DNA of 61,912 nucleotides, filler included, from Globobulimina sp. (Eukaryota), in the NCBI GenBank assembly GCA_003354225.1. It is 17 parts of 17 records of this genome, joined end to end, with 100 filler letters (N's around TTAATTAATTAA, not from the genome) between each part and the next. Parts side by side here need not be neighbours in the genome. Positions count along the whole stretch, not along the records: positions 18,256 to 21,805 come from PIVH01002531.1; 16 more parts are not named here. One strand, written 5' to 3'. Each line of letters starts with the position of its first letter. The first letter of the stretch is position 1. The translations under genes were made by a program, and so were the position numbers. Below, in pieces: positions 14,725 through 54,724 of the stretch. The notes beneath the pieces were generated by a model. It made no database searches, was not told where the DNA came from, and worked only from the letters and a program-made list of their open reading frames with translations.

Positions 14725-15618
14725 ATGGATTTCATCCTTTGTTGTTTTTTATGGGTGGAGAACCAATTTGGATATTCATACTTTTTTTCTTTTTTGTTTT
14801 TTTTTGTTTTAATGGCCTCAATTATTTACCATGTTCATAAATATATATATTTACCGTAATCTTTTTTCACAGACAAAACTTTCAACTTAACACTTTTTTT
14901 CTGAGACTTCAAAATCATTGAAATGCTGCATGGCCATCATGGTTTTCATTATAAAATGGTTTATACGGATATTACGGATATTACGGATAGGTGTTTTGGT
15001 TCAAATATCAACCGTCGTTGGCCAAAATACACGTTGTCGCCTTTAACTGACAGTAACTAGAGTCGAAAATGGGGTCATGCCTATTCGTCTCTTTATAACT
15101 CAGTGCCTGACCGGTTCCTAATTCGGCTGAGGCTGTCTCGACAATGTTATTTATGGATTTTATTGATTTTATTCTTTATTCAAAATTGGTTTATGCATTT
15201 AATTTATTATATCTATCTATTTTTCTCTTCCTCTCTTCCTCAAATCTTATATATTAATTTATAATATATTTAAATAACAAAACAAAAATAGCGCAAGTTG
15301 CTGACCTGCCTGCCTGCCGCTGCTAGCTAGCTACAATTAATTGCAATTTCATAATCATCAAATTATACAAATCCCTTTTGTTTGTACATGCCATGCCATC
15401 TAAATAAGCCACAAAAACTGTAGTAAGCTAAAGCGGCCTCTTAAATCATGTGACATGGCGAAAAGCAAAAAAAGATACGTTTTTATTATTATGTTTTGTT
15501 TTGTTTTGTGTGTTGTGAATGCAATATTAATAATATTATCAGAACGATGCGTGCGGTGGATCGAATTGGTTGATAATAATAAATCCTATCCAGTGCGGAC
15601 GGACACGAAAAAGGCATT

Positions 15619-17295
15619 GTGCCCGCCGGCTATTTCACGCACGGACATGCCATTGCGATATTGTTATGTGGCTCCAATCCAATGATTGCAGCCATTCACA
15701 TTGAAATCATACAAGACAAACATATAAAAAGCAACGATAAAAGCTCGCAATCTGCGACCAGTTGGTTCGCCGCTGCAAAATCATTGTTTCTGCATAAAAA
15801 GGCCAAAACACATACAAATAAGAATGAATTGTCTGCGATTACAATACCAAATGCCACGGACGATAATATCGCAGCGATTGGTAGATCTCCCTCCAAATCG
15901 CCGAGAGCCGCAAATAAAAAAATATATTCACGCCATAACCTGCAAAACCTGCGAGACAAAAAAAAGAAAAAGAAACAGAATCGAGATCAGATATTATTAG
16001 CACAGAAACATACGCAACACACCATTCGCGACCAAAAGTACAGTAAATATTTAACCAATTTCGAGTTGCCAAATAACAAGTTTTTCAATAAAAAAGCAAA
16101 CAGAAATAATCTGATCATGAATGCGAATGTGAATCATTGCTCCATTGTATCCATAGTCATGTCACCTGATTCAGAGTACGGTGCCTTTACAGACTCATTT
16201 GGTAGAATATGGATTTGGGACTGCAAACAGTGTCATTTCGTGCGGTTATTCAAAGGGTATCGCAGGGCCCAAATTGCGTGGTGTTACGTGAACAATGACG
16301 TTGACAAATTGATCTCGTGCATCAATGGAGATATTAGTGACATGCAAGGATATGGCCACAAATATGACAATGGCAGAGCCAATACGAACATCACCAATAT
16401 AATATCTTCCGTTGTCTTCGCCATTAAAAAAAAAGAAAAGGAGCGCCGGAGAGACATATTTGGCTCAATCCCATCGTATATATATCGTCGGTCGATATTA
16501 TTATTGGTTTTGTATATTGCATCCCGCGGTTTGTTGGAGTTTCATTACATAGGTTGTTATAAGAGATTGTATGCGGTGAACGTATTTAAGAAAGCGACCA
16601 TGATTTACCACTTAAATTATAGTGTATCGCCGCCATGGACGAGCATATTATTTGTAAGGAAAGGACAGAAGAATAATAATAAAAACAAGGTATACAAATT
16701 GAAGATTGATTCGAGCATAATTCACAATAATAATACGGCATTGCGCCGGATGACGGATGTGTGGGATCGCAAGAATTTGCACTGTAATTCGCCGATTAAG
16801 TTGTTATCGGATCAGCAGATCTATTTTAATGGCAATTATAGTCAGAGATTTAGCATATTTGGTACGCAGTATATAGCGCCTATGAGTGGCAAAAAAAATA
16901 ATATCATTCAATGGTTTGTGTTGGTGAATAAATGCGATGGCGATATTTGTGTTGGGATCCAGTTGATTGATAGGGATATAATTAAACCACAAACACAGAA
17001 TCATGGCGATTTTGCCAATGAAATGAATGGATGGGGCTATCATTGTGATGGTTTTTTGAAATGTAATGCTTCGTTCAGTAGATATGGATGGAAATATGGT
17101 AAATATGACACGATTGGTATTATATTAAACATTAATAGTTCTTCATTGAAGTTCTCATTAAATGGCAAATTATGCTCAAGAAATAATGGATTGACATTAC
17201 CAAACGTAACAAATGGTAATTTAATATATCGTTTGGCAGTGAGTGTCGGATTAAATTCCGTTGGCCAACTGACTATCATTGGATTTTGTAAATAG
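15619..17295 (+). CDS. RAB3GAP2: Rab3GAP non-catalytic subunit N-terminal-domain protein with C-terminal SPRY domain (5' end unresolved)
   Basis: LCGSNPMIA, SPDSEYGAFTDSFGRIWIWD...VRLFKGYRRAQIAW and LVLYIASRGLLE match the RAB3GAP2_N pattern. SPRY-like tail: ICVGI...GWGYHCDG...YGKYDTIGIILN...LKFSLNG. Confidence 0.75.
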   Translation: MPAGYFTHGHAIAILLCGSNPMIAAIHIEIIQDKHIKSNDKSSQSATSWFAAAKSLFLHKKAKTHTNKNELSAITIPNATDDNIAAIGRSPSKSPRAANKKIYSRHNLQNLRDKKKKKKQNRDQILLAQKHTQHTIRDQKYSKYLTNFELPNNKFFNKKANRNNLIMNANVNHCSIVSIVMSPDSEYGAFTDSFGRIWIWDCKQCHFVRLFKGYRRAQIAWCYVNNDVDKLISCINGDISDMQGYGHKYDNGRANTNITNIISSVVFAIKKKEKERRRDIFGSIPSYIYRRSILLLVLYIASRGLLEFHYIGCYKRLYAVNVFKKATMIYHLNYSVSPPWTSILFVRKGQKNNNKNKVYKLKIDSSIIHNNNTALRRMTDVWDRKNLHCNSPIKLLSDQQIYFNGNYSQRFSIFGTQYIAPMSGKKNNIIQWFVLVNKCDGDICVGIQLIDRDIIKPQTQNHGDFANEMNGWGYHCDGFLKCNASFSRYGWKYGKYDTIGIILNINSSSLKFSLNGKLCSRNNGLTLPNVTNGNLIYRLAVSVGLNSVGQLTIIGFCK

Positions 17296-18155: not shown

Positions 18156-18255
18156 NNNNNNNNNNNNNNNNNNNNNNNNNNNNNNNNNNNNNNNNNNNNT
18201 TAATTAATTAANNNNNNNNNNNNNNNNNNNNNNNNNNNNNNNNNNNNNNNNNNNN

Positions 18256-19062
18256 GAAACACCGGCAGCGGCATATAATATCGTCGAGGATACGGATAAT
18301 GAGAAGGATAAGCAACATGAACATGAATTTGATATATTTGATCACAAACAATATGAAAAACAGATTGAAGTATCAAAATTAAAAATTGTTAAACTTAAAC
18401 AGGAAACGTTTATTTTGCATATTGATGGTAATGAATTATTGAAGAAAATTAAATTTGCAATCAAATCTGATAAAAAATATGTATTTTATTCAGATATATT
18501 TGTTTTACATAAAGTAAAATGGTGCATTGTTTTAAAGAATAAACCAAAAAAACATTATGACGATTATGATTATGGTTATTTACCAAACAAAAAAGCTAAA
18601 AAACAAATTCCTAAAATGTTTATTTTTGTGAGATGTCTGGCATCGGACAGCTTTAATTGTAAAATTAAATTACATTTGATTCAAACCGGAAATAAAGATG
18701 AATTTCTTTGTGAATTTGAAAGTTCATATCGTAACAGTATGGAAGATAAGAAACAATATTTAATAGAAAATGGATTTAAAATAGATTCATTATCTGCCAT
18801 TACAATCAAATGTGATATTTTTGAATTTGGTGAGACAAATGATACAAAAGAAGAAGAAAAAAATGAAAATAAAACAATTAAGTTATGGTTACAAGAAATA
18901 GATTTGAGTAAATATTATGATTTATTCACAATGCATGGTATTGATAGCTTAGAGACATTACATTTAATTGAAAAAGATCATTTAAAGGAAATGGGAATAT
19001 GGAAAATCGGACATCAAATGAAAATATTACAACATATTAAAAAGTCACTCAAAGATTTATAG
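18256..19062 (+). CDS. Hypothetical protein with MATH-like region and C-terminal SAM domain (5' truncated)
   Basis: The frame is open from the contig start. YSDIFVLHKVKWCIVL is MATH-like. IKLWLQEIDLSKYYDLF...DHLKEMGIWKIGHQMKIL is a clear SAM domain. Confidence 0.8.
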   Translation, partial: ETPAAAYNIVEDTDNEKDKQHEHEFDIFDHKQYEKQIEVSKLKIVKLKQETFILHIDGNELLKKIKFAIKSDKKYVFYSDIFVLHKVKWCIVLKNKPKKHYDDYDYGYLPNKKAKKQIPKMFIFVRCLASDSFNCKIKLHLIQTGNKDEFLCEFESSYRNSMEDKKQYLIENGFKIDSLSAITIKCDIFEFGETNDTKEEEKNENKTIKLWLQEIDLSKYYDLFTMHGIDSLETLHLIEKDHLKEMGIWKIGHQMKILQHIKKSLKDL

Positions 19063-19311
19063 ATACGTGATACTGAAACATTTAGTTTCTTTTCATGTGC
19101 ACATTTTTTTTAATCCATTTTATGACTTTTTCTACACTCTAAAGAATTTTCCACTAACAACCAACTAAAACTTTCATTAACTCTTTTTCTTTGTTTTTTG
19201 CAAACCAATCCCAAGTGCCCCAAGATCACGAAAGCTAACAAGTTAGATATTAGTGCCTTGCATTTCATTTGTTTCCTGTGCATCAGCATCAATATAATTG
19301 AACTCAAGAGA

Positions 19312-21805
19312 ATGAGCAGTATTGTATGGTTCGTATCCATTGCAATCATAACTCGTCTGGTCGAATCAAAGTTTATTGATAACGAATTGCGGACCGGTTT
19401 ACATTTAAACAAACGTGACTTACGTCACATTAATTTAGAAGATAATGAAGCGATTAATACATTTGAAACCTCGCAATATCAGTTAAGGTACAAAACGCAA
19501 CAAAGATACCGAGGTTTACCAGTATTTGGAGCGACATTAGTGGTGGAACAAGACCCTGGCGATGCAAGCAAAAAAATTCCAATTTATGGGCGATGGTACG
19601 ACAAAACAGATATTCAACAATTAGTTCCAAGCATTAATCCCGAATTTGGTGAAGACGAAGCTTTACAAATTGCTTTGACTGCGCTCAATATCGATTCAAA
19701 GAACGTGTACTCGCAAAGTCCGGCCAAATTATACATTTATTATCATGATTCATTCCCATTTTTATGTTGGATTATAAAAGTTTCATACAGCAATCCAAGA
19801 AAAGGGGACGAAGTGCACCATCCCGTGGTGATAATTAATGCATTGACTGGCCGTGTATTGCAAATATATGACGAAGTATTCAATATTAATGCCGGTAGCA
19901 GCGGTGTTGAGGCGTGCGGTGATGGCGGCAATTTAAAAACTGGATTGTATCGATACTGCGTGGATTATCCTTCCTTATTAATCAATGATAATATTGTTCC
20001 CGTTTTAGAAAATGATGTGATTCAAGTTTATGACAATCACGGTAACCCTTATGACACTCATACATACGCAACAAAAGTAACCTGTTCCGGTTCCGTTTCC
20101 AATTGGAATGCAACGCACAACGTAACCGGCAACCACACCTCGCCCAGTTGCTATATCGATGATGTATACACCAACGGCGCGTATTGCCCCGCATGTGATA
20201 TATATGCATTTGCCAATGTAGTTTTTGAAATGTTTGATGAGTGGTAAGTTATTTGTTTGTCCCTTTTGTAATTTGTACCCCAACAAACAACCCATTTGTG
20301 TATAATATATAGGTCGAATGCGACGTATCCGATTTCTGCTGCTTTCATCCCAATGAAATTGTTCGTGCACGTTGGTATGTTGAATATTGAATGTTTTTTA
20401 AACTGCTTGCAAATAACAATAATTTTATATAGGATATAATTGGGTGAATGCAAATTTTGATCCTTATTCAGGAGAAATGAATTTTGGCGATGGGGCGACA
20501 AGTTGGTATCCATTGACTACATTAGATATTACAGCCCACGGTTATGTGCCTATTTATATTCATTTTTTGTGCGTAACATAACTTACAATACACTGCATAT
20601 ACACGGACAGAAATAGCTCACGGATATACGGATCAAGGCAGTGATTTGATATATTCCGGCGAGAGCGGAGGAATGAATGAAGGTAATTATATCTACAAAT
20701 GCACACTGTTTTTGTCACACCACTTTAAAAAAAATTAAACAGCATTTTCGGACATTGTCGGAGAGGTAGCGGAATATTGGTTTTTTGGTGAAAACGATTG
20801 GATGACCGGTGGCGATATATTTAAAAATGTCGGTGAAGCATTACGATATATGTACGATCCTCCAAATGATGGCATTTCCATTGATCATTACAGTAATTAT
20901 TATAGCTCAATGGATGTGCATTATTCCTCTGGTTTATATAATAAGGCAGCGTATAATTTGAATACAAACGGAAGTAATTGGTCGATGGAGGAGATTTTCC
21001 GAGTGTTTGCTTGGGCCAATTTATATTACTGGACTGCAGATAGTACCTTTAACGAAGGAGTGAGTGGATTATATCAAGCATTATACGATTTATATGACGA
21101 TAATATGACTGACGTAGATGCGATGGCAGATGAGCTAGATATTGCATTTCTTGATGTTGGTTTGGCCAGAATTAATACAAGCATTCCTGATAATATTTTA
21201 TGTGCAGGATCGAATAGGTATTGTTTTATTATACAATTTAATACAAACCTGTACTGTAATGGTTACATACACAGATTCTGTTATTATGAAAATATAAATG
21301 CATCACGCACTGCAATCACAAATCATACAGTAAGCATACAAGCGAATGATGATAGTTCTATCACATACTTTGATATATATTTTACTGTCAATGACAATGA
21401 TTGCATGCGTCCAACTTTATGGTTTAAATATGAATTAATTGATTATGACTCAAGCTCAGAGTATATTGATGTATGTAATATGTTGTATTTGTTATATACT
21501 CTATTTTTATAAATATATAACAGGTATTTGATATGAATGATAACTTAATCAGCCGATGTCAAGGCGGTTTTTCATGCGGCACATTTGACTCATCCTGCAT
21601 TCATAATTATGATTTGGGTGTATCGGCGTTCAGACGTGGCGAAACCTATAAAATCGCAGTGGTAGAATCTGCTGCAGTCGATGATTTATGCGGAACAGGA
21701 CCAACAATTAACGCATTTCTTACATTGCAATGTGAATACGGCACAATTTCGCCAACTGCAGAACCAACAAATAACCCAAGCATGGAACCAACGCAACCAA
21801 CAATA
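19312..21805 (+). CDS. Secreted M4-family (thermolysin/LasB/vibriolysin-like) zinc metalloprotease, 7 exons, 3' truncated
   Basis: Signal peptide, FTP (QQRYRGLPVFG) and PepSY (IINALTGRVL) propeptide, GGNLKTGLYRY, NGAY, FGDG...YPL, HEIAH, GGMNEAFSD and DVHYSSGLYNKA. GT-AG introns at 20244..20312, 20375..20432, 20541..20610, 20683..20742, 21218..21274 and 21471..21523 restore one frame. Confidence 0.93.
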
Positions 21806-21905
21806 NNNNNNNNNNNNNNNNNNNNNNNNNNNNNNNNNNNNNNNNNNNNTTAATTAATTAANNNNNNNNNNNNNNNNNNNNNNNNNNNNNNNNNNNNNNN
21901 NNNNN

Positions 21906-22849
21906 TTCCTGTTAATTGTCTGTACACAGTATCACCATATGCTGTTTTATTAACATCAAAACCGAAATATATGGCAAGAAATTCCGGAGCCATCCAATAA
22001 ATCTAAAACAAGGTTGTATGTACAACTGAAACAATATACTGTTGTATGTACAAGTCTACAAATAATGTTTCCATTTGACCCTATATTGTTTTTATTTGTC
22101 CATATTGTGTTTGCAAATTAATGGTATTTACAGCACAATTGGTACAAAGACAGACGCTCTACTTTAAGGTTTGCCATACGTATTTCTGGTTTCTTGCCAT
22201 ATCTCAATATCCTCACCATAAATATTCCCAGAATTCCACTCACAACGAGCCGTCGAAGGGATTATACGGCATCCTGCGCCATTGCCACATGCTTCATATA
22301 TATACGAATCAAATGATCGGAGGAGATTATTTCCGGTCACACAATCGTTTGTTAATAGATTCTGTACATTAATGTATAATTTATATTAATTCATAAGAAT
22401 GTATTCATACCTTTGCAGTATTTGTTCCAATCCAAAAATCAGTATTTGCTGGTTCGATGATGGTTTGATCACCTTCGTTAAATACAAATGATACTTCTTT
22501 GTGGTAATTTAATGCAATGACAGGATTAGAACATGGCTTGGCAACCACTGCATAATTATCATAGTTTGCATTTGATTTACTACCGGGTGGCACAAATCTG
22601 ATTGATATGGCATATGTTTGTAAGTGCTTCTGTACTATGATAATATGCGTATGTTGACGATTGCCCTTCTGTACAGTTCGACATTTTTATCCAGCCTATT
22701 TGTTGTGTTGTATAGGCATCTATTTGTTCAGTTGTAATCTCATCAAAAGTCATTTGATTCAACACAGGAATTGTTTGCGCATTGCATAAACATATTGCAT
22801 ATATTTCCCATATAATGTAGAGTCTTGGCGTAAACATGTGCAAGGACAT
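21906..22849 (-). CDS. Secreted Cys-containing hypothetical protein, multi-exon, one apparent frameshift, 3' truncated
   Basis: Signal-like N-terminus. ORFs 22580..22849 and 22405..22593 overlap out of frame near 22615. A GT-AG intron follows TNTAK, then the exon NLLTNDC...YIYEACGNG...CEWN. Confidence 0.5.
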
Positions 22850-23016: not shown

Positions 23017-25455
23017 TTACAAATCAGGAAAAATCGTTGGCTCATCCAATAAAATACGACAACATCGCATTACAAAAAATAACACAACATCGATAATCCA
23101 GGTAATCCAAGACATTTTGATAAATATTGCTATCCCATCATTATAGCTCATTTGCCTGGTTTCTGGATCTGCACAAATTAAACAATCCCAATCATTATTT
23201 GCCATTGCTGTAATAAGCAAAATCATTATTGCATTATCAAACCATTTAGGTGCTAAAGCTAATGGATTTGCAGAATAAATTGGTGTTGCCACACTTCCAA
23301 GCATCATGACCAAGAAAATATCCTCCACTTCACTAGCATCCCCTGTCATTTGTGTAGCCACAACACCACAGCCATAAAAATATAAGGTAATTACCAAGAA
23401 TATAAATAAAAACCAACCGCCCATTACTATCCAAATCAACGAAAATACAGAGAATCTACATAAAATATGAGCAAATCTCCATACAATTCGCACAAAATAC
23501 CATGGTTGCGCACAATTTGGACATTTCTTCTTTGGTTTCATACTTGTTGCAACATCTTCTACCGCATTTGCATCCAATGTCCAAAATTTATTGGCAATAC
23601 TAAATACACTTGCTATTAAAGACATAAATATCAAAATTAAATTTGAATTTGATGCTAAAAGTGCATCATTCGCACTTCGTATAATAAACGCTCCCTGCAA
23701 TACAACCTGGGGCCTAGACTCAACGACGGATTCCGATAACATACATAAATATTGCACAGCAGCGGGATCGACATCCAATAACTCCAAATCTTTTTCTTCT
23801 TGTTCTGATAATTTGACCTTTGCATCAAACTCCGTTGGATCGATTTCATCATTTTCGTCACTTTCGTCACTTTCGTCATTTTCGTCATCAATAACCTCAT
23901 TTTCGTCATTATTTGGCTGTTTTACTACCTTTGCCAATTGAATTTCATTTGCAACATTTCCTTGTCCTTGTTTCAGTTTTTTTTTCCTTAATTGATTTTC
24001 TTCAAATATACGTTTTCTTTCCAACTTTTCCTGCTTTAACGTCTCCAAACGGTCTCTTTTTCTTCGTAATTTCTCCTGATTGTCTTTGATAATATCTTTT
24101 GCGGATTTAAAAGAATCATAGACTGCCAATAATATATACATATCGACCACAGATAATAATAATCCACCGAGCAATCTTCTAAAAGAACCACCAGCATAAA
24201 ATAAACATATTCCGATAGTAACTAATCTGTACGCTATGAGTGCAGCACATGCCCCATAAAAAAAAGAAGCCATATCAACACTTTCATAGTTATGACCGTT
24301 TTGTTCGTCTTTCCATAAATAATACCATGTAACAATAACACCTAAATCAGTGGCAGTATCATAAAAATGAGCTATTATTTGTCCATAAATTTTCTTCTGT
24401 TGCCATACAGATTTAAAAAATGTTGTATCTAAATTATGATCCCCAGAATAATACACATATAATGCTAATATTATCATAAATGTTGTATATACAGAAAAAT
24501 GTGTAATGGCTGCCATTGTTGACCAATCCTCACTGTTCTCGGAATTGTGTAATTTTACAATAACAGGTGTGTCATTAACGCATTTTTGAACTTCTGTGAC
24601 AATTAATTGGAAACACATATCATTTGCACCCTCACAATTAGTATTAACACAGGAATCCATACCCATGTCTTCCATTGATTGATATATACAATAATTTGTT
24701 TTTTTATTTTGTATTTGAAACCATGCTGCGTACTGATTATGCATTCGCCAAAACTGTTCAATATCATCATTACATGGTTGTTGCTCAATGGATTGTATTG
24801 AAATATTATATCCATTGTCTCTATTAATAATACATGTATTTGTCTTCATGTTTTTGATTCTGAAATATTGAGAAGTAACATTTCCTGCACCATCAAATTG
24901 CCAATAACCGTTTTCTGAATCACAATCAATAAAATCATATGATTGAGCTGTTCCTGTTCCATTAATAAATTTAATACAGTGTTCAGTTTGTTTATTTTGT
25001 AAATTACCGATACTTCCACATTCAATGTGAATATTACTACTAACACAGTCAAGTGATTCTGATCCCCAAATAGGAACAACAAAACCAAAAAATACCACAG
25101 AAATTAAAATACAATGAATACAATAACAACTTAGAAATGGACATTTAAGATTACGACCACCACAACCATCCCAATCAACATTATCTAATAACAACATTGC
25201 ACCAAAAGAAGCAGGTCCAGTGGCAATTTGTAAGCATCCAATAACAACAACAAAGATAAATATAATATTTATATCAGGTATACTTTGTAATGCATTTTGA
25301 TCAATAATTCCAACGACAGCAAATGATAAACATGTACCAATAAAGTCACAACATACGGATGCCACAATCGTCATACGGATCCCTGTAATTGCTATTGCCG
25401 ACTCGAACTGCGATCCAGATGAAATTGACTTCATCATACCGGGAAATGACGATGC
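23017..25455 (-). CDS. XK-related multipass membrane protein with an inserted ricin-B-like lectin domain (5' may be truncated)
   Basis: XK-like motifs [11 protein letters not shown] and [14 protein letters not shown]. Ricin-B-like repeats [22 protein letters not shown] and [12 protein letters not shown]. Confidence 0.75.
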
Positions 25456-25593
25456 NNNNNNNNNNNNNNNNNNNNNNNNNNNNNNNNNNNNNNNNNNNNT
25501 TAATTAATTAANNNNNNNNNNNNNNNNNNNNNNNNNNNNNNNNNNNNNNNNNNNNTCATATACAATAATATAAATACAAATTAATGCAAATAC

Positions 25594-28908: not shown

Positions 28909-29203
28909 TTTTGTATTAAAAAATATTAAAAAATTAAACTCATTGTTTTTACTTTTTATTTCATTGTTTTGATCACGTGAAAATGTTAACGTTTGATTTG
29001 TGAAATGTTTTGTTTTGTTTTTAATTATTTTGTGTGTAAAATAATTTATTATATTATTATGTTTTTAATACCCTTTTTTGTCTTCATATTACAAACTATT
29101 ATANNNNNNNNNNNNNNNNNNNNNNNNNNNNNNNNNNNNNNNNNNNNTTAATTAATTAANNNNNNNNNNNNNNNNNNNNNNNNNNNNNNNNNNNNNNNNN
29201 NNN

Positions 29204-32200
29204 TCAAGAAACGCATAAAAGAAGCGGTGGTCGAGTCGGATCCGCCCGATCCATATCTCGATCAATGGAACGGTATCATTCGAAATATAATCGTCCCCAA
29301 CGAGGAACTGCAGGAAGAAGAAGACTATAAAATGGATAGCATGGACAAAATGAATGTGCATTTGTCCTTTGACAATTTGTTACTACGCGGCTCTGAGCTA
29401 CGAAATTCTGACTGGTGTTATGCCATTGTGATCTACACCGGATTCGATTGCAAGATATTTATGAACAACAAGTCCCGCGAGAGACAACGCATAAAACGGT
29501 CGTCTGTGGAGAAGACATTGGGCAGATTCATATATTACATGGTCGGCGCCCAGTTCCTTATCTGTGTGATGTGCGCCATATTGTCGGGCGACTGGACCCA
29601 CCGCAACCAGCATGCCTGGTACTTACACGGCAATATCTCGCCGCAATTGGACGGATTCTATAAGTTCTTCACTTGGTTCATCATCTTTGCGCAGTTCATC
29701 CCCATCTCGTTGCTGGTTTCCATGGAAGTGGTGAAATTCATCCAGGCGCAGTTCATGCAATGGGACATCAATATGTATTGCAAATTGCGCGGCAAAACGG
29801 ACAAGTTCTGCACGGTACAAAACAGTAATTTGAACGAGGAATTGGGGCAAATTGATTACGTATTTAGCGATAAGACGGGGACGCTGACGGATAACTCGCT
29901 GGATTTCCGCAAATGCGTCATCGGAGAGATCAATTATGGCCGCGGGGAGACGGAGATTGGCCGTGCCGCCAAACGGAGGGAAGAAGAGTTGCAGCAACAA
30001 ATCGAGCATCAACAAGGTAATGGCAATAACAATGAAAGCATACCGTTCAAAATCAAACGAACGTACACCTCTGACATCGGAGTGGTGTTGGAACGAAATA
30101 ACAACGCACCGCATGTCAATTTCGATCAGGAACTCAAACTCCGGAAACAATTAAAGTTATCGTGCCTCAATACAGACAACGAGCACGCTCGAATGGTGCG
30201 GAGGTTCCTGACCGTATTGGCCATCAATAACTCGTGTTACCCGGTGTTCGACGACGAGCACAACGAGTTATCGATCCGTGCGGCCTCGCCCGACGATGAA
30301 TGTTTAACCTGTTTTGCGCAGTTTATGGGGATACAGCTGACGGACCGCAACCCGCCGTCGATCAAATTGGATGTATATCCCGACGGTTTGGACAACGAAG
30401 ATAGCCATTTCAGTGAGAACTGGCTGCAATTGGCGGAGTTGCCGTTCACTTCGAAACGCAAACGAATGAGTGTGATCGTACGCAATTTGTCGACGGGAAA
30501 GATCCATTTCACGATGAAAGGCGCGGACAGTGAGATGATACGGTTAATGGGCGCCGATTACGCGAACAGTAAATACCGCAGCTATACGGAGAAGTACTTG
30601 GATGAGTACAGCGGTGAGGGTTTGCGGACTTTGGTGGTGGCGGAGAGTATTTTGGAGGCGGATTGGTGGGACGATGCCGGCCATGGTTGGTTTGGCAAAT
30701 ATCAGCGCTTCATCGAGGACACGTTGATTATGGAGGAGACTGACCGCGGCCATATAAAAGGAGCGTGCTCGGACCAGTGTAGGAAGTGTATCTGGTACGA
30801 ACGGATCGAAATGGACGCCAAGTGCCAGTTGCTTGGCTGCACTGCGATCGAGGATAAGTTACAGGAGTCAGTGCCCGAAACCATCTCTGCGATGTTGGAC
30901 GGCGGCATAAATGTGTGGGTGTTGACCGGGGACAAACAGAAAACTGCGGAAAACATCGGCATTGCCTGCAACTTATTGGAGCCGAATATGGAACGATGTG
31001 GCTTGTTATTCAAGTTAACCTGCATGGAATCGCATACGTTGCACGATATTATGCAGTCCGCCATCGATGCGATTAATAAATATAACGCCGAGAACCAATA
31101 CAATGCGCAGTCTCCCGGCTTAGTGATCAGCTCCACGGCGCTGAAAACCATAATGGACATTGACAACAACAACGACTGCGATTTGCAGAGCCTGTTCCTC
31201 GAATTGGCCAAACTGTGCAAGTCTGTGATTGGCGTTCGACTGCAGCCCAACCAAAAGGCGCAGATCATCGATTTTATAGCCACGCGGACGTCTGCCCGGA
31301 CCCTGGCCATTGGCGACGGCACCAACGACGAGCCGATGATCCGCACTGCCAACGTCGGCGTCGGTATCTGCGGCTTGGAGGGGACCGCGGCGGTGCGGGC
31401 CAGCGATTATGCCATTGGAAAGTTCAAGTTTTTGAAGCGTTTGATGTTTGTGCACGGCCGCTTGCACTATCGACGCATCACCACGTTGGTCTGCTACATG
31501 TTTTATAAGAACGGGTTGCTGTCGCTGAGCTCCTTTTACTTCGGCTTTTATAACGGTTTCAGTGGGCAAATATTGTACAATGAGTGGGCGTACCAGCTAT
31601 ACAATGTGGTGTTTACCTGCGTTCCCATCTTTTTGTTTGCGGTGATCGACCGGGACCATACTGATAAGTTTCTGATTAACCATCCGCAGTTATATTACAT
31701 TTCGCAGTCTGGCGAGTATTTCAACTCCAAGGTGTTTTTTACGTGGATTGCGGACTCGTTGTTGGCGTCGTTTTTGTTGTTGATTATTCCGATCAACATT
31801 TATGAGAACAACACGTCTCCGGACCATACGGGACAAAGCTCGGGTTTGTGGAGTGTGGGCTGCGTCATTTTGACTGCGATCGTGTTTACGGCCAATATCC
31901 GGCTGGCACTGATTACAAACTCATGGATCTGGATAACTCACTTGTTTTTATGGGGCAGTGTCGCGGCGTACTTTGTGTCTATCATCATCTTAAACAGCAC
32001 GACTTTTTTTGCCAAGGCGGGCTCTGATTATTATTGGATGGTGTTTCGGATTTTGCAGTCGGGCCGCTTTTGGTTGACTGTGTTTTTAGTGAGTATTATT
32101 GCGTTGTTTGCGCCGTTTACGTATATCGCGTTCAGCACAATCAGGAAGAATGCGAAAATAGAGGAGCAAGAACAAAATACAATGTCTTTTAATGCCATCC

Positions 32201-32380
32201 AAAATAGAAACAATAACAATAATGATGATGATGGAGGTTTGTCTCAATAAATTATTATATTTGTTAGATGGCCTTTTTGTTTTGTTTTCTTTTCTTTTTT
32301 TAGGCGCAAATCGTCACCGTTCATCTAACGAATATGATTCTGGTTCAAGTAAAGAGCCATTAAAAGGATATGAAAAGTGA
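29204..32380 (+). CDS. P4-type ATPase (phospholipid flippase), 5' truncated
   Basis: LLLRGS, IPISLLVSME, LNEELGQIDYVFSDKTGTLT (phospho-Asp), AASPDD, FTSKRKRMSV, VLTGDK, LAIGDGTND and FYKN. A final intron at 32237..32303 leads to the stop at 32380. Confidence 0.96.
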
Positions 32381-43431: not shown

Positions 43432-43504
43432 TGGAGTACCCGGGTTTCGATCCCGGTGCCTTAACGTTGCGAACGTTACGCGCTTCCGATTGCGCCAGTA
43501 CCCC
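43432..43504 (-). tRNA. tRNA-Ala (anticodon CGC)
   Basis: GGGGTAC-TG-GCGC-AATCGGAA-GCGC-G-TAACG-TTCGCAA-CGTTA-AGGCA-CCGGG-ATCGAAA-CCCGG-GTACTCC-A. Full 73-nt cloverleaf with the G3:U70 alanine determinant and discriminator A. Confidence 0.95.
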
Positions 43505-44077: not shown

Positions 44078-47000
44078 TTACGGAGTTTCATCAAATGTAA
44101 ATGTAATCAAATACAATGGAAGAGACTGTGCGTTATCAAATGTGACAAACATTGAAGGCTTATCAACATGGTCAACAACAGAATCGTACAATTTGCTATC
44201 ATTATTATTTGGCATTATTTTGGGCGGTCTTCTCAATCCCGATGATCCCTTACAAAATGAGCCAGCTTTAACCGCACATAAAAACATATATTTTACCATT
44301 CGACCAATGATTGCATCCACTTGTGATTGCTTACAAAATTGTGCAGCATACGATGCATAAACAGCAAAATATGATCCATTCCCATATTTTGTGCCATTAT
44401 CACCATGTAATCGGAAATCTGTTCCTTCACTGATAATACCACTCACATTCAATGGCCGTGTACCATGAAATAACAATAATTGATTATCGATTCCATTCAA
44501 ACAATTATTATATCTTTGTTGGTTGTCAATATTTTGTATTCTTTCAATGCGATGGATCTCTAAACCTCCACTCATTCCACGATTCTTCATCAACTCACAA
44601 ATCGCGTTATATTCCATTTTATGCCGTTGTTTATCTAATTGATATCGCTTGCAATTTCCGCCTGAACTCATCCAAAACGACGACCATCCCCTCATTTTCT
44701 GTCGATGTAAGGGGGTTAAACTTATTCTACGTTGCACTCTAAACCCATTTCGATCATGTAATCTTATTTTCTTTTTATATAAACCTAATTTATTGAATCG
44801 AATGTCATAATGGCCGCTACCATAATTGTGATATACTTTATTCTTATTACGATATGATTGTTCAATTGCTTTTGCCTCATTCGACCCAAATGGAGTCCCG
44901 CCATCCCGATCATTCATAAAATAAATCCATTCAAACGCTTCATGAATAATTCCAATTGTGTTATTTCGGATATTTATGGTTTCGATATTGATGATGCTGT
45001 GCAAATTTCTTGCTATTTGATTTTGTGTTGAGTTTGATTTTTGTTTTGCTTTTGACAAATAATTTTCATATAAATCCTTAAGATTTTTTAAGTCTGTCAT
45101 TACAATATAAGTGGGATTATTATCTAAAATATGATTAATATTTGCTATCGCGTCTTCAAATGATTTTTGTGAGGCGTTTTCAGGTAAACCAGCTAAATTT
45201 TTTGCTGTCTGGGTGCGAAGTGCTTGTTGGGCGCTTCTGCTATGTCCACGATATAACGATGGATTATTGCTGTTGTTATTGTATTGATTGCCCAATGCGG
45301 CTTGTTTTCGCTTCTGTTGATGGCGCGAAACAATGCCAAACGCTGATCCTTGATTTGATGCATTGGTGTTTGCATTTGCTGGATGTGCATAAATATTATT
45401 TTTTCGACGACGATACGAATTCTTGTGTTGGTTAAATCTGTAACGGGAACTTCTTTGCACCGCATTTGCTTGTTTTTTATAATTATTTCTTCTGCCATTA
45501 TTATTTGGATGTTGCTCTTGTAAACATTTCAATTGCCGTTGAATTTGTGGAATTCGACTATTATTTTCTTGATTTATTTGAGATTGAAAATATTGATAAT
45601 GAAGAATAGCAGTTTGATAATATCGTATATTCCAATCAATCTCTTTTCTATTTTGATTATTTATATACTTTGCACCGGATAACAATATTTTGATTCTATC
45701 ATTGGGCTTTGTATTGTTATAAGCCATCACTTCAAAACAAGCGAGTGCAATTTTTGGGAACCACTTTATTTTCGCTTTATTTGCATTCGAATGAATATAC
45801 TTTTTATTGCTAAGTACAGCCACAAATGTTGTTTGGGCATAATAATACTTCTCCTTTTCTCTAAATGCAGTTCCAAGCAAAAATGATATATGTAATGATT
45901 CATAAATATTCATTATTTTCTCCTTTAATTTGAAATATTTCTCTTTCTCTTCAATGATGGTACCATACGATCTCAATACATAATGATCTTTTAGTTCTTG
46001 ATAAATCTCTGCATTCGATTGTTTTTTGATAGTTTGTAATCTTTCATACAATCTTGACTTGACTTTTGTTTTCCGTTTACAATCCTTATCATATTTCATA
46101 GCTTCATCTTTATACTTTTTGTGTTTGTACAGCCATTTAGTTGCAATTTTATTCATTTTCCTGGCACAACTCGCAGCGTTTTGCATTTGTTTCTTTCGTA
46201 AAAAAATATCGGTAATCCATCTTTCAATCTCAAACTGCTGTTTCCGATATTCAATCAAATAAATTGGAGACTGAGCAATACAAAGTTGCACACATTGCCT
46301 GCACTTTGTTTGGAAAACACGCAAACAACGATCAAAATCTTTTAAATGATACAATGTTAACGCCAAATTAAAATATGCATCCAATTCTTTATCAATCAGA
46401 TCATATTTATTTGCTATTCCCGCTGCTTCTGAATAGCACATTTTTGCCCTGTCACATTGATTTAATTCGTCATACGTATGGCCTGAATATCATTGTATTA
46501 ATTATGTACAAATATATTATATTTATATGGGTACTGTACCTAATTCTATTTTTGAATAAGCTCTCTGTTCGTTTATGTCTGTTGCACTCAATGTTTTGTC
46601 CAAAATATACTTATATTTATTATTATTATTCTTTTGTTTTAGTAAATTATTTAAGATATCTAAGGATTGTTTATAATGATCCTTTGATCGAAGTCGGTCC
46701 TCATAACTCCCTCTCTGACGATAACTATGTGCAATATTGGAGGTACAGTAATATCTCCAATGCAAAACCACAGACTGATGCACGGTTTGATAACTCACCA
46801 CTTCATGTTTTAAATATGCATCGTATTCTTGGATGGCTTCATTCCATTTTCGTTTTGAAATTAAATATTTTCCATAATACTCTAAACTCGCAAAATAATA
46901 AAACATTAACATCGAATGTTGTTTATTTATATTCCGCCCTTGTTCTCTGCTACATTTTATAAGATATTTGTTGATGAATTCCTTCCCATCACTGCTTACT

Positions 47001-48046: not shown

Positions 48047-49917
48047 ATGGCAGCTACTGCACTGACTGAAGAAGATTGCAAAGAATATTTTGATGAACCA
48101 GAAGAATTGAAAGGGAAAATAAAAAAATTAGCTGAATTGGTGAAAAGAAGTCAACATTTCGTCGCATTTACTGGCGCTGGTATATAAATATTTATATTAT
48201 GATAACATTATGTGTATGGAAACTTAAAACAGGCATATCAACGAGCGCAGGAATAGCAGATTTCCGTTCAGGTATAAATACAATCTTAGATACCGGCGCA
48301 GGAGCATGGACTAAAAAAGCAGCAAAACAAAAAGGTCAAACTGTAAAAACAGCCAAACGTAAAGTCTCCACATTAAAAGCATACCCAACACCATCTCATA
48401 TGGCATTACTACAATTAATGAAAAGCGGTCATTTGAAATATTTAATCTCTCAAAATACGGATGGTTTACATCGACGATCTGGTATCCCACCCTCTCAACT
48501 ATCTGAATTGCACGGAAACAGCACATTGGAAAAATGCGCGAAATGCAATAAAGAATATTTGCGAGATTATCATTGTAGAAACAGAGTTGCTCGAAAACAA
48601 AGTAAAAAATTATCTGATGAACAAAAAATTGGCCGCTATAAACATATGACAGGCAGATATTGCACAGTTATTGGATGTAACGGAGATTTACAAGATTCTG
48701 TAGTTTCATTTGGTGAACATCTGCCTTTTGATCCACTAGCTTTAGCTCAGCAGAATTCAGACAAAGCGGATTTGTATTTATCATTAGGCTCATCGTTGGG
48801 TGTTACGCCGGCACGGGATATGCCAAAAGGAATTGGTAAGAAATGGTTGAAAGAAAAACGAAAAAAGCCACAGCAAACAACCACACATAATTTAGTTATT
48901 GTTAACTTACAGAAAACACCGTTGCATGGAAAATGCTCACTGCCTATTTTCGCAAAAATTGATGATGTTATGATTGGATTAATGAATGAATTGGATCTAG
49001 TAATACCACATTGGAATTTGCAACGATATATAAAAGTTAGTCTGAATGCGAATATTTTATCAGTTTGCGGTGTGGATAGTGATGGAACGCCATTTGAGGT
49101 ATTTAGGAAAATAACATTGTTATATCATAAAAAGGAAATAAAAGCAATCAAAAATGATGTTATTGCATTTGAATATGTTATACCAAAAAATATAGAAAAA
49201 GGGTTAAATATTTGGTTAGAATTTTATAAGAATTATAAAGAAGTGGATTTGTTGATAAATTTGAATGATTTGATGCCAGATTTAATGAAAAATGATGGAA
49301 AGAAAGGGATTATTTTACAATTGATGTTTGACCCTCGGCGTTGTAAATGGAATAAACCACAAATATGGAATGAGAATGATGAGTTAATGGATTTGAAGAA
49401 TGTGTGTTTGATGCAACTGTATAAGACATCATATGGTTATGACGGGAAAAATGCACTTTTATTTGGCAATAATAAAAAAAACGAATCATTGCTCTCACCG
49501 CAAAAAATAACCAAATATATTAGTTCAAATAAATGTAAAATATTATGGATTGATGGTAAAACGGGAAAGGAGGATCTCGCGACATATACAACATTCTATC
49601 ATCAATTTGGTTTATTATACTGTTATTATTTTGATTATTACGTGCCACAAATTAGAATAAAAATATTAAATAAAATTATGTTTACTACCAATGATAACAT
49701 TGTTGGCGATGAATTTGGGAAAATATTATATTTGATTTGTGAGTATGAAGGTGTTTGTAATTTATTGAATGATTTTATTCGAGGCGATTTTATGAATCCA
49801 TATCCATTTCATAAAAATTTAATGATTCAAAGAATGTTTCAACATTTGAATGAATTTTCAAACGAATGGCAAGAATTTATTAATACGTATTCAAGTCATA
49901 GACAAGTATCTGATTAA
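48047..49917 (+). CDS. Class IV sirtuin (SIRT6/7-like NAD-dependent deacylase) with C-terminal extension, 2 exons
   Basis: VAFTGAG|ISTSAGIADFR (intron 48180..48232), PTPSHMAL, ISQNTDGLHRRSG, ELHGN, Zn-binding CAKC...C..GC, LGSSL and IVNLQKTP. Confidence 0.92.
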
Positions 49918-50862: not shown

Positions 50863-51080
50863 ATTTGTTGATCTGTTCATCGTTCCAATAAATACTGCCG
50901 TTTTCAAATATTAAGTCTCCCGTAATAGGTAATGACGGCATTATATCATCTAAATTGAGTGTGAGTGTCTGACTGATGATNNNNNNNNNNNNNNNNNNNN
51001 NNNNNNNNNNNNNNNNNNNNNNNNTTAATTAATTAANNNNNNNNNNNNNNNNNNNNNNNNNNNNNNNNNNNNNNNNNNNN

Positions 51081-54000
51081 CATGAGCACATTATAACTGA
51101 CGATAAGCAGAAGGCCGACGTTATAGTGGAATATATGGACACTATCGGTCATGATTCAAATCCAATGTATGATAAATCGATAAAGAGATCGCGAAGTGAA
51201 GCACGTAAAATGGACAAACCGTATGATTTCAAACCCAAAATATGGGCAGAAATGGATCAGAAACACTTATCAAATCATCAGATTATGGCCACAAAGGAAT
51301 GGGTTGAAGCCTGTAATAAATTAACGGGCCCATTCAACAAAGCAGAATTCCATGCGGCTGTAAACAAAGCAAATCCAGGCAAAGCATATCATGGCATTGA
51401 ACATTTATGTCTGTTAAGACACGCTGAAAACCAAATTGTTGATATCTTCCTTTTTATTTTTGATTGGTGGAAGGATAATGGTGTCGTAACAAACAATATG
51501 AACCAACGTCTCATGAATCCACTGTTGAAGCCAGGAAAAGATCCGCGACTAATTGGCTCATTAAGGCCGTTGGAATATGGCCTAACAATATTTAAAATAT
51601 ACACTATGATGGTCTTTGCGAGAATTAATGAGTACGCAACCAAATTTAATTTATTATCAATACATCAATTTGCGTCTAAAATAGCATCCGGATCTGAGGA
51701 TTGCTTAATCGATATGATCACGGATATAAATGGCATGATTTCCAATGGATTCCCTGCAGTCTTAGCCTCAATGGATTCGAGCAGTGCGTACAACTCTATG
51801 TACCCTCCAATTATCGAAGACAAAATGGTTTATCATTGCGGATTTAATAAAAATGCATTAACTATGTTCAGATCATTGACAAGTAACGTAACGTCAGTAT
51901 GCAAAGTAAATAATACGATATCAAAGGTATTTGACCCTCTAAACTCGCTATTTTCCCAAGGATTTATACCTGCGGGTTTTAGTTGGTGTGTTTATGTCAA
52001 TCCGTGCGCAGTACATCTAAATAATAGATATATATTATACGATAAATGCAATCGGATTTTAGCTAAAATCCAGCCCAAAATATTAATGGACGACATAAAT
52101 TATTATATATTATTAAATAATGATAATAAATCGCTTAAATTGGACGCACGAATGGAATACAATGAAGCTACAATGGCAGACAAAATATCAATAAATGAAT
52201 TTATTAATCTCAAATCTAATAAGAGATATATGCATATATTACAAAAAATGCTCCCGATGCTACAAAAAGCGATTGATTATACACGAAATTATTTAAACAC
52301 CAACAACATTCCAACAAATAATGATAAATCGCACATAGTAACATTTCAGGATTGGTATTATCAGAAATTAATGCAATTTCAGGAAGAACACAAGCAAATT
52401 ATACCAATGATTGATAATATCCAGAGACTAATTGTAAAAAAGAATAAACTGCGAATATCCCAGCATAGCAAACCAATTTATGTAATAAAAAAGGATAAAT
52501 TAATAAACGCAATTAACAAAAGATACGGTATTGAATCATCCAAAAAAATAATGAAATATGCAATAAGAGAAAAAATTTGGTACAATCACAAATCAAATGA
52601 AGTAAAATGTATTATAATTTTAGATGAATACGAATACAGTCAATTTGCTGACAAACAAAAAGTAATAAATCATAAATTAAATGATTGGTTGATGAAATAC
52701 CGTAATTTTGATCTATCTATGAATGGAATTGATACTCATAAACATTCGAAAAGTTTCGTGATTTTGGGCATGGAATTGGACGATAAATGGTCATTTAAAT
52801 TGCACTCAGATAAAATGATAAAAAATATGAGAACAATTCGCCGTTCTTGCTATAAGTTAATATGTAGCAAAAAATTTAGAATCTCCGCCGGTGTCACAAA
52901 GTATTATATTGAATCTACGGCGATGGTCTTATTAAATTATGCGGGATCAACGTATTTAAATTTGAACAGTAATAATAAAATAAAGAATGAATATAATAAT
53001 TTGATGCGAACATTAAATCACAAATTGTATACATTGTCGGATTTAGAAAGAGCAAATTTTAATGGTTTTAATACATATGAAACATTCGTAAAAAAGATAA
53101 ATGCAAAGTCGTTCTCAAAATTAATGAGATATAATAAGAATAATGCTTTGTATAAAAAGAAACAAAAATTTATATCCGAAATAAAGCCATATTATCACCG
53201 AATTACCAATGAACATAACACCAGAGATAAATTCAAGAAAATACCGAAAGATAAAGCCAAAAATAATATATTTTGGCAATGGTATATGGCAGCGATTGAA
53301 TTAAAGTCAATGGACGCAATAACATATATTTGTGGCAATTTTGTAGAGCGATTTGGGTACAATTTCATCCCAACACCGATTCCAAAGTCTATGGTATTTA
53401 TTAAATATGAAAATATGTGGAAAGATGAATATGTCGACGTAAATAAGTTATATTTTGTACCGGATGGCTCGGTATATTTTTATGACAATGATCCAAAAAA
53501 TAGAATGTATGGAATTGGTGGCTGTGCAATGGTAATATACCACGGCCACAAAATAATAGATGAAATTGCGTTGCCTCTCAGCGTGAGAACGCATATAAAT
53601 ATCATGGAATTTTACATATTAACTGAGGCACTGAAATGGATAAACAACGAAGATAACGAACGCAAATATGTAAATAATGTGGATGGAATTGCAATAATTA
53701 CGGACAGCCAAAACTGTTTAAACATATTGTCGCAAAAACATATGCCATCCGACGATGTGATAATTAATCTGTACATAGCAGCAAATGATGAAATAGCGAA
53801 AATAGCAAAATCGGACTTCGTTAGCAATTTTATCAAAATGTATTGGGTGCATAGCCACTCAGAATCGAATCTAAATAATTTGGTTGATATGTTAGCAAAA
53901 TGTGCGGCAGGAATGGTAAAACTCCAATTTACCCAAAGAAAATACACCGAATTGGAACAAGAAGACGATGTAACCGAAGAAATCCAAAATAAAAATGATG

Positions 54001-54624
54001 ATAACTCCGATGAACACAAAGAAAATGACCTATTCAATGATAACAAATTGCCGCATGAATTAAATGGAAATCACAAATATTGGTTAAATCCAAACGAATT
54101 AATTGGATACAAAACAATCAAATCGGAGATAAGATTTTTAGCAAATAAATTAGATGAATCGCTATGGAATCAATACAGATATCACAACATAAATGTAATT
54201 GGGAAACATTATTATCAGTTAAAAATCCGATGGAATCCCAAGAAATACGCTGATGTCATACCACATATTACCACAATGGAGAATGATATCCGTGTAATGT
54301 GTATGGCAGAGCAACTACCATTAAATGCATATATGGTATACAAAGCAAATAATTACGTATACGATCCATGGTGTACCCAACATAGTGATTGTATACAACG
54401 TCGTAGTGATGAAACATTAATGCATTACATAAGTGAATGCAAAGCATTGCATTACATTGAACACCGTAAGTGTTTATATAATGCCATTGATGAAATCTAC
54501 AGTGGTTATAATCGCATGGCCACAAAGGAAAAAAACAAAGTGATCTTTGATAAAGAAGGCGATATTAATCACATACAGAAACATCTATTTTTCCCGCCCT
54601 TAAAACTCGACGTAAAGCTAAGAA
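51081..54624 (+). mobile_element. Non-LTR retrotransposon (LINE) ORF2: reverse transcriptase - RNase H - CCHC-like knuckle; both ends truncated
   Basis: Uninterrupted frame across the contig. RT motifs LKPGKD...LRPL, HQFA, MDSSSAYN, QGFIPAG, LMDD and ILG. RNase H D-E-D-D residues (DGS, IME, TDS, VDMLAK). C-x5-C...ET..H...C knuckle. Confidence 0.92.
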
Positions 54625-54724
54625 NNNNNNNNNNNNNNNNNNNNNNNNNNNNNNNNNNNNNNNNNNNNTTAATTAATTAANNNNNNNNNNNNNNNNNNNN
54701 NNNNNNNNNNNNNNNNNNNNNNNN

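Follow-up and report, generated by a model that had tools for sequence, protein, structure and literature searches.

The stretch analysed here, hereafter the window, comprises 61,912 nucleotides from the foraminifer Globobulimina sp. (assembly GCA_003354225.1), assembled from parts of 17 records joined by filler, and carries on its plus strand, from an ATG at 19312 to an assembly gap starting at 21806, a gene for a metalloprotease of the M4 family (the M4 gene). With introns removed, its frame extends over seven exons and 2127 nt, or 709 codons without a stop, and is still open at the gap. The original prediction, made from the sequence alone, had placed here a bacterial-type M4 protease domesticated in a eukaryote, with six introns and an added C-terminal module. 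All six introns were found, with borders within 1–3 nt of our reconstruction; they measure 69, 58, 70, 60, 57 and 53 nt, have GT..AG ends in six of six cases, fall in phases 2, 1, 1, 1, 2 and 0, and leave an open frame. Unspliced, the plus strand of 19312–21805 contains no single long open reading frame (ORF) with the whole protease, the pieces of which are spread over frames that measure 373, 257 and 110 codons from stop to stop and over shorter frames in between.

Splicing was assessed by comparing the window with assembled contigs of the public sequencing runs X1, X2, X4 and X7, of which X1, X2 and X7 come from three studies. Contigs of X1 skip all six coding introns at their exact borders, and those of X7 skip these six plus an intron in the 5' untranslated region (UTR). 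X2 contigs skip five of the six (introns 1 to 4 and 6), and a contig starting with the nine letters that end exon 5 fits the joint over intron 5. X4 contigs, 100% identical to the window at a depth of about 5, retain introns 1, 3, 4, 5 and 6 unspliced. Confirmation of the junctions by RNA sequencing had been proposed with the original prediction; the six joints are matched exactly by contigs of X1 and X7, that these runs are RNA being a guess.

To judge from an adapter-like loose end that an X7 contig has immediately before 19181, transcription would begin near 19182. X7 joins 19241 to 19309, delimiting a 5' UTR exon (19182–19241) and a 67-nt GT..AG intron (19242–19308) that ends 3 nt before the ATG and is skipped by one X7 contig with a side of 30 letters; this seventh intron was absent from the first model of the gene. 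Exon 1 (19312–20243) holds the ATG, the hydrophobic N-terminus MSSIVWFVSIAIITRLVES, a propeptide with an FTP motif (residues 60–82) and the start of the catalytic N-domain, with GGNLKTGLYRY and NGAY..VVF. Intron 1 (20244–20312, phase 2), retained in the X4 contig 20005–20355, precedes exon 2 (20313–20374; 62 nt, delimited by the open frame and the contigs), and intron 2 (20375–20432, phase 1) precedes exon 3 (20433–20540), which ends with His367 (20537–20539) and the first base of Glu368 of the zinc motif HEIAH. Intron 3 (20541–20610, phase 1) cuts this catalytic Glu codon between G and AA, exactly as had been foreseen, and exon 4 (20611–20682) supplies the remainder of HEIAH, the Tyr of LIYSGESGG, and GGMNE with the third zinc ligand, Glu391 (20679–20681). 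Intron 4 (20683–20742, phase 1), predicted between NE and AFSD, cuts the Ala codon right after N-E of GGMNEAFSD; the X4 contig 20500–20892 retains both introns 3 and 4. Exon 5 (20743–21217) encodes the alpha-helical M4 C-domain, with VHYSSGLYNK and ANLYYWTADSTF, and the start of a C-terminal module. Intron 5 (21218–21274, phase 2; retained in the X4 contig 20888–21420) is followed by exon 6 (21275–21470), with the first half of this Cys-containing, all-beta module, and intron 6 (21471–21523, phase 0; retained in the X4 contig 21422–21804) by exon 7 (21524–21805), with the remaining half of the module, up to about 21748, and then a PT-rich linker (PT repeat, E = 0.004). One splice site thus sits in the codon of the catalytic Glu, which gene callers tuned to bacteria or to long exons would miss.

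The gap (21806–21906) consists of two runs of N around a linker, ttaattaattaa, which has stops in all six frames, and it leaves the gene without its 3' end. Since this is a scaffold gap, the gene is incomplete in the assembly and not truncated in nature. The loose end of an X1 contig behind 21803 carries the PT-rich frame onward, and X7 record 24 provides 594 additional letters. No M4 or module match occurs downstream of 21906 in the rest of the window, which holds one M4 gene only.

The X1 and X2 contigs differ from the M4 gene of the window by a few percent. The differences were counted over 40 listed rows (39 in the coding sequence, one in the 5' UTR; a further 67 rows lie beyond those). 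Of the 39 coding differences 27 fall at third codon positions, 19 are synonymous, and both indels, at window positions 19407 and 20100, are in frame (a 3-nt deletion in X1 and X2, and a 6-nt one in X2 only). This pattern is that of a frame under selection, and the spliced contigs appear to represent another allele, a strain or a close species bearing the same gene.

Some contigs depart from this model. Joints at 20378>20471, 20461>20838 and 20903>20975 (X2) and at 20801>20880 (X4) have sides of 21–24 letters and ends other than GT..AG, and a joint at 21216>21273 with eight extra letters (X1) likewise has a short side and ends other than GT..AG; we rejected them as alternative splicing and take them to be paralogues or contig chimeras. 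Separately, contigs of X4, a run that looks genomic, and of X7 have loose ends at 19238, 19302, 19370, 20311 and 21437; they match the M4 gene to or from these positions and then diverge. One of them begins to match at 20311, two bases before intron 1 ends, and differs upstream of that point. They look like paralogues or alleles from a single organism, and in one of them intron 1 may occupy the position that it has here.

Pfam scans were run on the separate exons, the spliced protein being assembled computationally. Exon 3 matches PF01447 (Peptidase_M4) at model positions 104–137 of 145 (E = 1.2e-4; 23.0 bits, cut-off 22.4), exon 4 matches positions 1–14 of the Peptidase_M4_C model, and exon 5 matches PF02868 (Peptidase_M4_C) at positions 16–157 of 165 (E = 2.5e-23; 83.2 bits, cut-off 24.4), so that the matches run consecutively along the M4 models across the introns. 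The FTP propeptide (PF07504) is found in exon 1 (E = 4.3e-05; 23.7 bits, cut-off 21), and the propeptide chain of MCP-02 aligns weakly with residues 48–189 (E = 0.01). From its hydrophobicity, MSSIVWFVSIAIITRLVES was judged by eye to be a signal peptide. The predicted layout of signal, FTP, PepSY and M4 thereby holds for FTP and M4 and, by eye, for the signal, and is not borne out for PepSY, which has no Pfam match at E ≤ 1 in the exons of the gene. The sole NCBIfam match, over residues 56–308, is to the Legionella ProA model, at 103–213 bits and far under its equivalog cut-off of 900.

Both the domain order and the zinc site are those of family M4. HEIAH occupies residues 367–371, Glu391 of GGMNEAFSD lies 24 residues past the first His, and two further residues, Tyr of LIYSG and His of VHYSSG (H59 of exon 5), occupy columns that vary little or not at all across the family alignment; that these residues act as zinc ligands and as transition-state Tyr and His is assumed by us from thermolysin and LasB. 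The motifs that had been named as hallmarks of the LasB/vibriolysin branch are present in the protein (GGNLKTGLYRY, NGAY...VVF, YPLTTLDITAHE and ANLYYWTADSTF). Residues 7–695 of the spliced protein also align without a break with P0002, a protein of 1343 residues from Nonionella/Bolivina, at 57% identity. Taken by its sequence, the product is probably an active M4 prepro-metalloprotease encoded by a real spliced gene.

Comparison of exon 5 with chains of the PDB yielded 102–113 bits for 7ecc, MCP-02 and LasB and 96 bits for Legionella ProA, against 44–56 bits for thermolysin and the Bacillus neutral protease and 36–39 bits for aureolysin. The product is thus of the LasB/vibriolysin/ProA type, much nearer to MCP-02, LasB and ProA than to thermolysin, an assignment that agrees with the branch originally proposed and with the tree described below. 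It resembles vibriolysin (with MCP-02 and 7ecc), LasB (pseudolysin) and ProA in the order Peptidase_M4 then Peptidase_M4_C, in HExxH, in the Glu of GGMNEAFSD, in GGNxKxGxYxY and VHYSSG, and in an FTP-type propeptide. Unlike them, the foraminiferal gene is eukaryotic and has six coding introns, and its clade is unmatched over about the first 60 positions of Pfam Peptidase_M4, the matches starting at 18–65.

An exhaustive HMMER search of 1.84 billion representative proteins with exon 1 produced 202 matches at E ≤ 0.001. The first 14 comprised ten EukProt proteins from Bolivina argentea and Nonionella stella, one MMETSP transcript for which no organism is given and three unnamed ENA proteins; an Alteromonadaceae and a Porticoccus protein stood farther down. 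Full-length members of the resulting foraminiferal clade pass both the Peptidase_M4 and the Peptidase_M4_C models. A profile of this clade matched 1132 proteins at E ≤ 1e-10, the best 120 of which were five EukProt or ENA clade members followed by 115 bacterial-type proteins. Every organism-named protein among these 115 was gammaproteobacterial, from Vibrio, Thermomonas, Dyella, Luteibacter, Lysobacter, Oleiagrimonas and Permianibacter and from unclassified metagenome-assembled genomes of Gammaproteobacteria and Lysobacteraceae. Likewise, the best 80 loci among the matches listed by a pattern scan of 185,579 prokaryote genomes (one per species), with 45–59% identity to exon 5, were 78 Pseudomonadota by title and two Corallococcus. 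Metagenome contigs yielded 63 pattern matches and no relative when scanned with exon 5; with the clade alignment they yielded 80 matches in 77 loci, at the same 45–59% identity as the bacterial ones, and no foram-like genomic relative. Among the relatives listed by these searches, those with a eukaryote label are so far only foraminiferal, plus the one MMETSP transcript. The notion of a single domesticated gene therefore holds as regards a bacterial-type gene in a eukaryote and not as regards its being alone, as it belongs to a many-membered Bolivina/Nonionella clade.

We built a tree of the catalytic domain, from 180 residues before to 185 after HExxH (71 rows by 363 columns), using IQ-TREE under LG+C20+F+G4 with posterior mean site frequencies (PMSF), with ultrafast bootstrap and the Shimodaira–Hasegawa-like approximate likelihood ratio test (SH-aLRT) for support. 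It took in the spliced protein of the window; 13 members of the clade, namely P0005, P0024 and 11 with a Bolivina or Nonionella label; named sequences from Gammaproteobacteria, Legionella and Corallococcus; unnamed metagenome proteins reduced at a threshold of 50% identity; and, as outgroup, five M4 proteins of Bacillota. Left out were proteins reaching less than 120 residues upstream or 150 downstream of HExxH, near-duplicates (≥ 72% identity in the case of bacterial loci, and ≥ 50% to a retained row in that of unnamed proteins), P0161 and P0040 as cluster-mates of retained rows, and the Listeria locus L087, which has no ORF with the search motif.

The window protein was sister to P0002 (100/96) and then to P0003 (100/97). 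All 14 rows marked as foraminiferal or eukaryotic fell into one clade of 17 rows (100/99), together with P0034, P0063 and P0137, which share the Pfam signature of the foraminiferal clade, an N-domain match beginning at model position 62–65. Its nearest outgroup is a set of seven unnamed metagenome proteins (93/80), two of which carry the bacterial PPC domain; one of the proteins, P0041, resembles bacterial M4+PPC clusters. The whole LasB-type group, foraminiferal clade included, is separated with 100/100 support and a stem of 1.35 substitutions per site from the five Bacillota rows and P0011, and 37 of its 48 bacterial-type rows are named, 36 as Pseudomonadota and one as Myxococcota. These relationships place the foraminiferal clade within or beside the proteobacterial LasB-type radiation. 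Within the clade, the Bolivina paralogues P0014, P0017, P0018, P0020, P0021, P0029 and P0030 branch more deeply than the split between the window protein and its Nonionella/Bolivina counterparts, so that much of the duplication took place before the window's organism diverged from those rotaliids. The transfer thus appears to predate much of foraminiferal diversification, the M4 gene being a member of an old, expanded foraminiferal family.

The helical domain is followed by about 150 residues with conserved cysteines and then by a PT-rich stretch, in keeping with the Cys-containing domain and PT repeats noted originally, and this module is lacking in the bacterial relatives. P0001 contains three copies of it and P0023 (2687 residues) ten or more, in each of which the first half aligns with exon 6 and the second half with exon 7. 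The module has no Pfam match, and a search with residues 235–540 of P0001 returned, among 1062 candidates, only P0001 and P0002, the search being word-limited and hence weak evidence that other proteins lack the module. PPC, PKD or P_proprotein domains occur in most bacterial profile matches, and none of the three was found at E ≤ 0.1 in exons 6–7 of the window or in six full-length clade members. Cys-rich modules and PT linkers thus stand in their place, and the module appears to be specific to the foraminiferal clade and is distinct from the PPC, PKD and P_proprotein extensions of bacterial enzymes. An AlphaFold2 model of P0006, which has two copies (alignment of ten sequences), had a mean predicted local distance difference test (pLDDT) value of 76 and displayed two all-beta domains with a disordered PT linker between them. 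Foldseek comparison of this model with the PDB gave as its first 12 matches, at E = 1e-6 to 3e-5 and a probability of about 1, structures that we take to be tandem-CUB proteins (neuropilin a1a2, MASP, MAP-1, C1r/C1s, PCPE-1 and Neto2). With moderate confidence, the predicted fold points to a CUB-like module, the alternative being a much-diverged PPC-type domain.

Overall, we favour, with a probability of roughly 0.85, the view that the M4 gene is a functional nuclear foraminiferal gene for a secreted M4 zinc metalloendopeptidase of bacterial origin that has since expanded. This preserves the core of the original interpretation, a LasB-type gene of bacterial ancestry with introns, splicing and an added module, and does not extend to the gammaproteobacterial donor or PepSY. 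Several points weigh against it. No run is recorded as being RNA; what X1, X2 and X7 are is guessed, and the joined form could in principle be DNA. The transcriptomes behind the foraminiferal labels were made from cells collected in the field and may include other organisms, and six of the clade rows (the window, P0005, P0024, P0034, P0063 and P0137) have no Bolivina or Nonionella label. The profile matches considered are the best 120 of 1132, and other eukaryotic M4 lineages may rank lower; the bacterial sample was picked by likeness to the query among the matches listed, with scan patterns that favour this subfamily. As for the module, the CUB likeness comes from one predicted model with whole-model template modelling (TM) scores of 0.15–0.21, low because its two domains are differently oriented. 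A clostridial collagen-binding tandem of PPC type also matches the P0006 model (E = 1.3e-4). Pfam CUB has no match in P0006 at E ≤ 10 or in six clade members at E ≤ 0.1, and phmmer of P0006 against the PDB gave only the M4 tail and a meaningless match to a neuropilin-2 linker (E = 0.93). Finally, the ultrafast bootstrap had not settled (correlation 0.967), and an approximately unbiased (AU) test allows the 48 bacterial rows to form a clade excluding the foraminifera (log-likelihood difference 3.08, p = 0.413). Nesting inside the Gammaproteobacteria is therefore not established by the tree and the donor cannot be named: of the proposed transfer from marine Gammaproteobacteria, the bacterial ancestry stands, and that donor is plausible only.

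The same AU result leaves room for a sister relationship between the foraminiferal clade and the whole set of sampled bacterial LasB-type rows, as would be expected if this M4 type had been present in early eukaryotes, or in early Rhizaria or the wider group of stramenopiles, alveolates and rhizarians (SAR), and had survived in foraminifera, the proteobacterial likeness then reflecting an old shared origin or a transfer from eukaryotes to bacteria. Such vertical inheritance would also suit the depth of the clade, its long internal branches, its many paralogues and the presence in it of the MMETSP transcript as one basal member. We nevertheless consider it improbable. No non-foraminiferal eukaryote label appears among the 26 match proteins whose clusters were checked or among the best 120 of the 1132 profile matches, and the outcome named originally as a refutation, a wide eukaryotic M4 clade of vertical descent, did not appear, the labelled eukaryotic relatives being foraminiferal apart from the MMETSP transcript. 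The atlas clusters, which serve as leads only, are all bacterial. The family is very widespread in bacteria, as the number of profile matches attests, and the 100/100 stem from Bacillota M4 sets the foraminiferal clade within bacterial M4 diversity as a whole.

The clade also contains a member whose zinc site has changed: around residues 347–387 of P0023, from Nonionella stella, GAIDNFYAD replaces the ..NE..SD of the family and the third zinc ligand is lost. P0023, with its many module copies, may be a non-catalytic paralogue. That the M4 gene of the window is itself a decaying or non-catalytic paralogue, real and transcribed as a binding or structural protein that keeps only the M4 fold, is slightly less probable still than vertical inheritance. 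Beyond the precedent of P0023, 20 of the 39 listed coding differences are non-synonymous; against this, none of HEIAH, Glu391, the LIYSG Tyr and the VHYSSG His has been lost, the frame is open over its 709 codons, and the differences favour third positions, with indels in frame.

Contamination or a chimera, with the M4 sequence derived from a bacterium that accompanies the protist and the introns being a reading artefact, could appeal to the 45–59% identity of the catalytic domain to proteobacterial enzymes and to the N gaps on both sides of the gene (18208–18255 and 21806–21906), but it is not tenable and we consider it refuted by the frame structure and the contig joints, as there is no unbroken bacterial ORF, the frame is interrupted six times by GT..AG stretches exactly removed in contigs of three runs, and the nearest relatives are eukaryote-labelled transcripts at 57–78% identity. 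The adjacent SAM-domain gene, cited with the introns as an argument against contamination in the original prediction, indeed has its last exon at 18256–19062 (+; Pfam SAM_1, E = 1.7e-15), upstream on the same gap-free stretch, and an X4 contig spanning 18646–19217 bridges it and the 5' region of the M4 gene. Across 30 bins of 2 kb, guanine-cytosine (GC) content lies between 0.26 and 0.38 in 29; in the M4 region it amounts to 0.30–0.34, like most of the window. Spliceosomal introns and eukaryotic neighbours thus place the gene physically in a eukaryotic genome.

The favoured reading, a functional foraminiferal gene of bacterial origin, would be explained by one bacterial M4 gene that entered an early foraminiferal lineage a single time, then gained introns and was duplicated repeatedly; one acquisition with subsequent intron gain and expansion is the simplest account of the deep branching of the paralogues. 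The bacterial PPC or PKD extension would have been replaced by arrays of Cys-rich, CUB-like beta-sandwich modules on PT-rich, probably glycosylated linkers. In LasB, vibriolysin and MCP-02, the roles of the propeptide and of the zinc site are established. By analogy with LasB and MCP-02, the hydrophobic N-terminus would direct the protein into the secretory pathway, and the FTP-bearing propeptide would aid folding and block the active site until autocatalytic cleavage. Zinc held by His367, His371 and Glu391 would activate water, with Glu368 as general base, and the mature enzyme would lie outside the cell, anchored to a surface or matrix by the modules and the PT stalk. There it may digest prey or biofilm on the pseudopodial network or remodel an organic matrix, a guess that is somewhat less likely than not to be right.

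A broader and still more speculative proposal is that one early acquisition of LasB type became a large modular family of extracellular enzymes, from about 600 to more than 2600 residues, carrying CUB-like modules, in some cases ten or more, on stalks rich in PT, and serving the exterior of the reticulopodial network in digestion of prey or biofilm, adhesion or remodelling of the organic test lining, some members being non-catalytic binders; we think it rather unlikely to hold. If true, the foraminiferal M4 family would be a parallel, made by a protist, to metazoan protease-plus-CUB architectures. The metazoan astacin-family proteases BMP1/tolloid, and other CUB-bearing proteases such as C1r/C1s and MASP, presumably share with it a secreted zinc or serine protease joined to repeated beta-sandwich modules of CUB type. 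They differ in that the foraminiferal catalytic family is M4 and not M12A or S1, and in that CUB gives no signal at the level of sequence in the foraminiferal proteins. The resemblance would then be one of convergent domain shuffling and not of whole-protein homology.

The M4 gene offers a checkable case of a bacterial secreted hydrolase turned into a eukaryotic gene family, with splice sites defined to the base, acquired long enough ago for intron gain, heavy duplication and the exchange of the bacterial C-terminal domain for another repeat module. For foraminiferal biology, it provides candidate enzymes for extracellular digestion or matrix remodelling, processes with little molecular detail so far. 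The principle is already known. According to the main text of a survey of lateral gene transfer in Rhizaria, prokaryote-derived genes are common there, are enriched among predicted extracellular proteins, duplicate often and gain introns with time, 69% of those in Reticulomyxa filosa having at least one (bioRxiv 10.1101/2023.01.27.525846). The foraminiferal M4 gene fits these extracellular, intron-gain and duplication trends. Peptidase, protease and thermolysin go unmentioned in that main text; the supplementary tables, which lie outside this comparison, may list the family (bioRxiv 10.1101/2023.01.27.525846). The present analysis contributes the exact splice evidence, the structure of the clade and the C-terminal module. 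Literature searches found no report joining foraminifera, horizontal gene transfer and metalloprotease; foraminifera with thermolysin returned only unrelated work on coral Vibrio, and the papers listed for M4, thermolysin and eukaryotes contained nothing relevant. As a lead only, a report on the foraminiferal test-matrix proteome mentions three zinc metalloproteases, their family unnamed there (PMC11648905).

Other frames lie elsewhere in the window. A Rab3GAP2 N-terminus with SPRY (15583–17295, +), an XK-related protein with a ricin-type lectin domain (23017–25503, −), a PARP catalytic domain (44078–46489, −) and Sir2 (48136–49917, +) are all typical eukaryotic genes. A frame of 1032 codons at 29152–32250 (+) matches the C-terminal part of a phospholipid-translocating P-type ATPase (P4-ATPase; E = 4e-74) and coincides with the sole GC-rich part of the window (0.497 at 30001–32000, versus about 0.3 elsewhere). 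Another, of 1215 codons at 51033–54680 (+), may belong to a retroelement; its sole Pfam match at E ≤ 1e-4 is an RNase H domain (E = 2e-7). One tRNA gene, at 43432–43504 (−), is all that Rfam matches at gathering score across the window.

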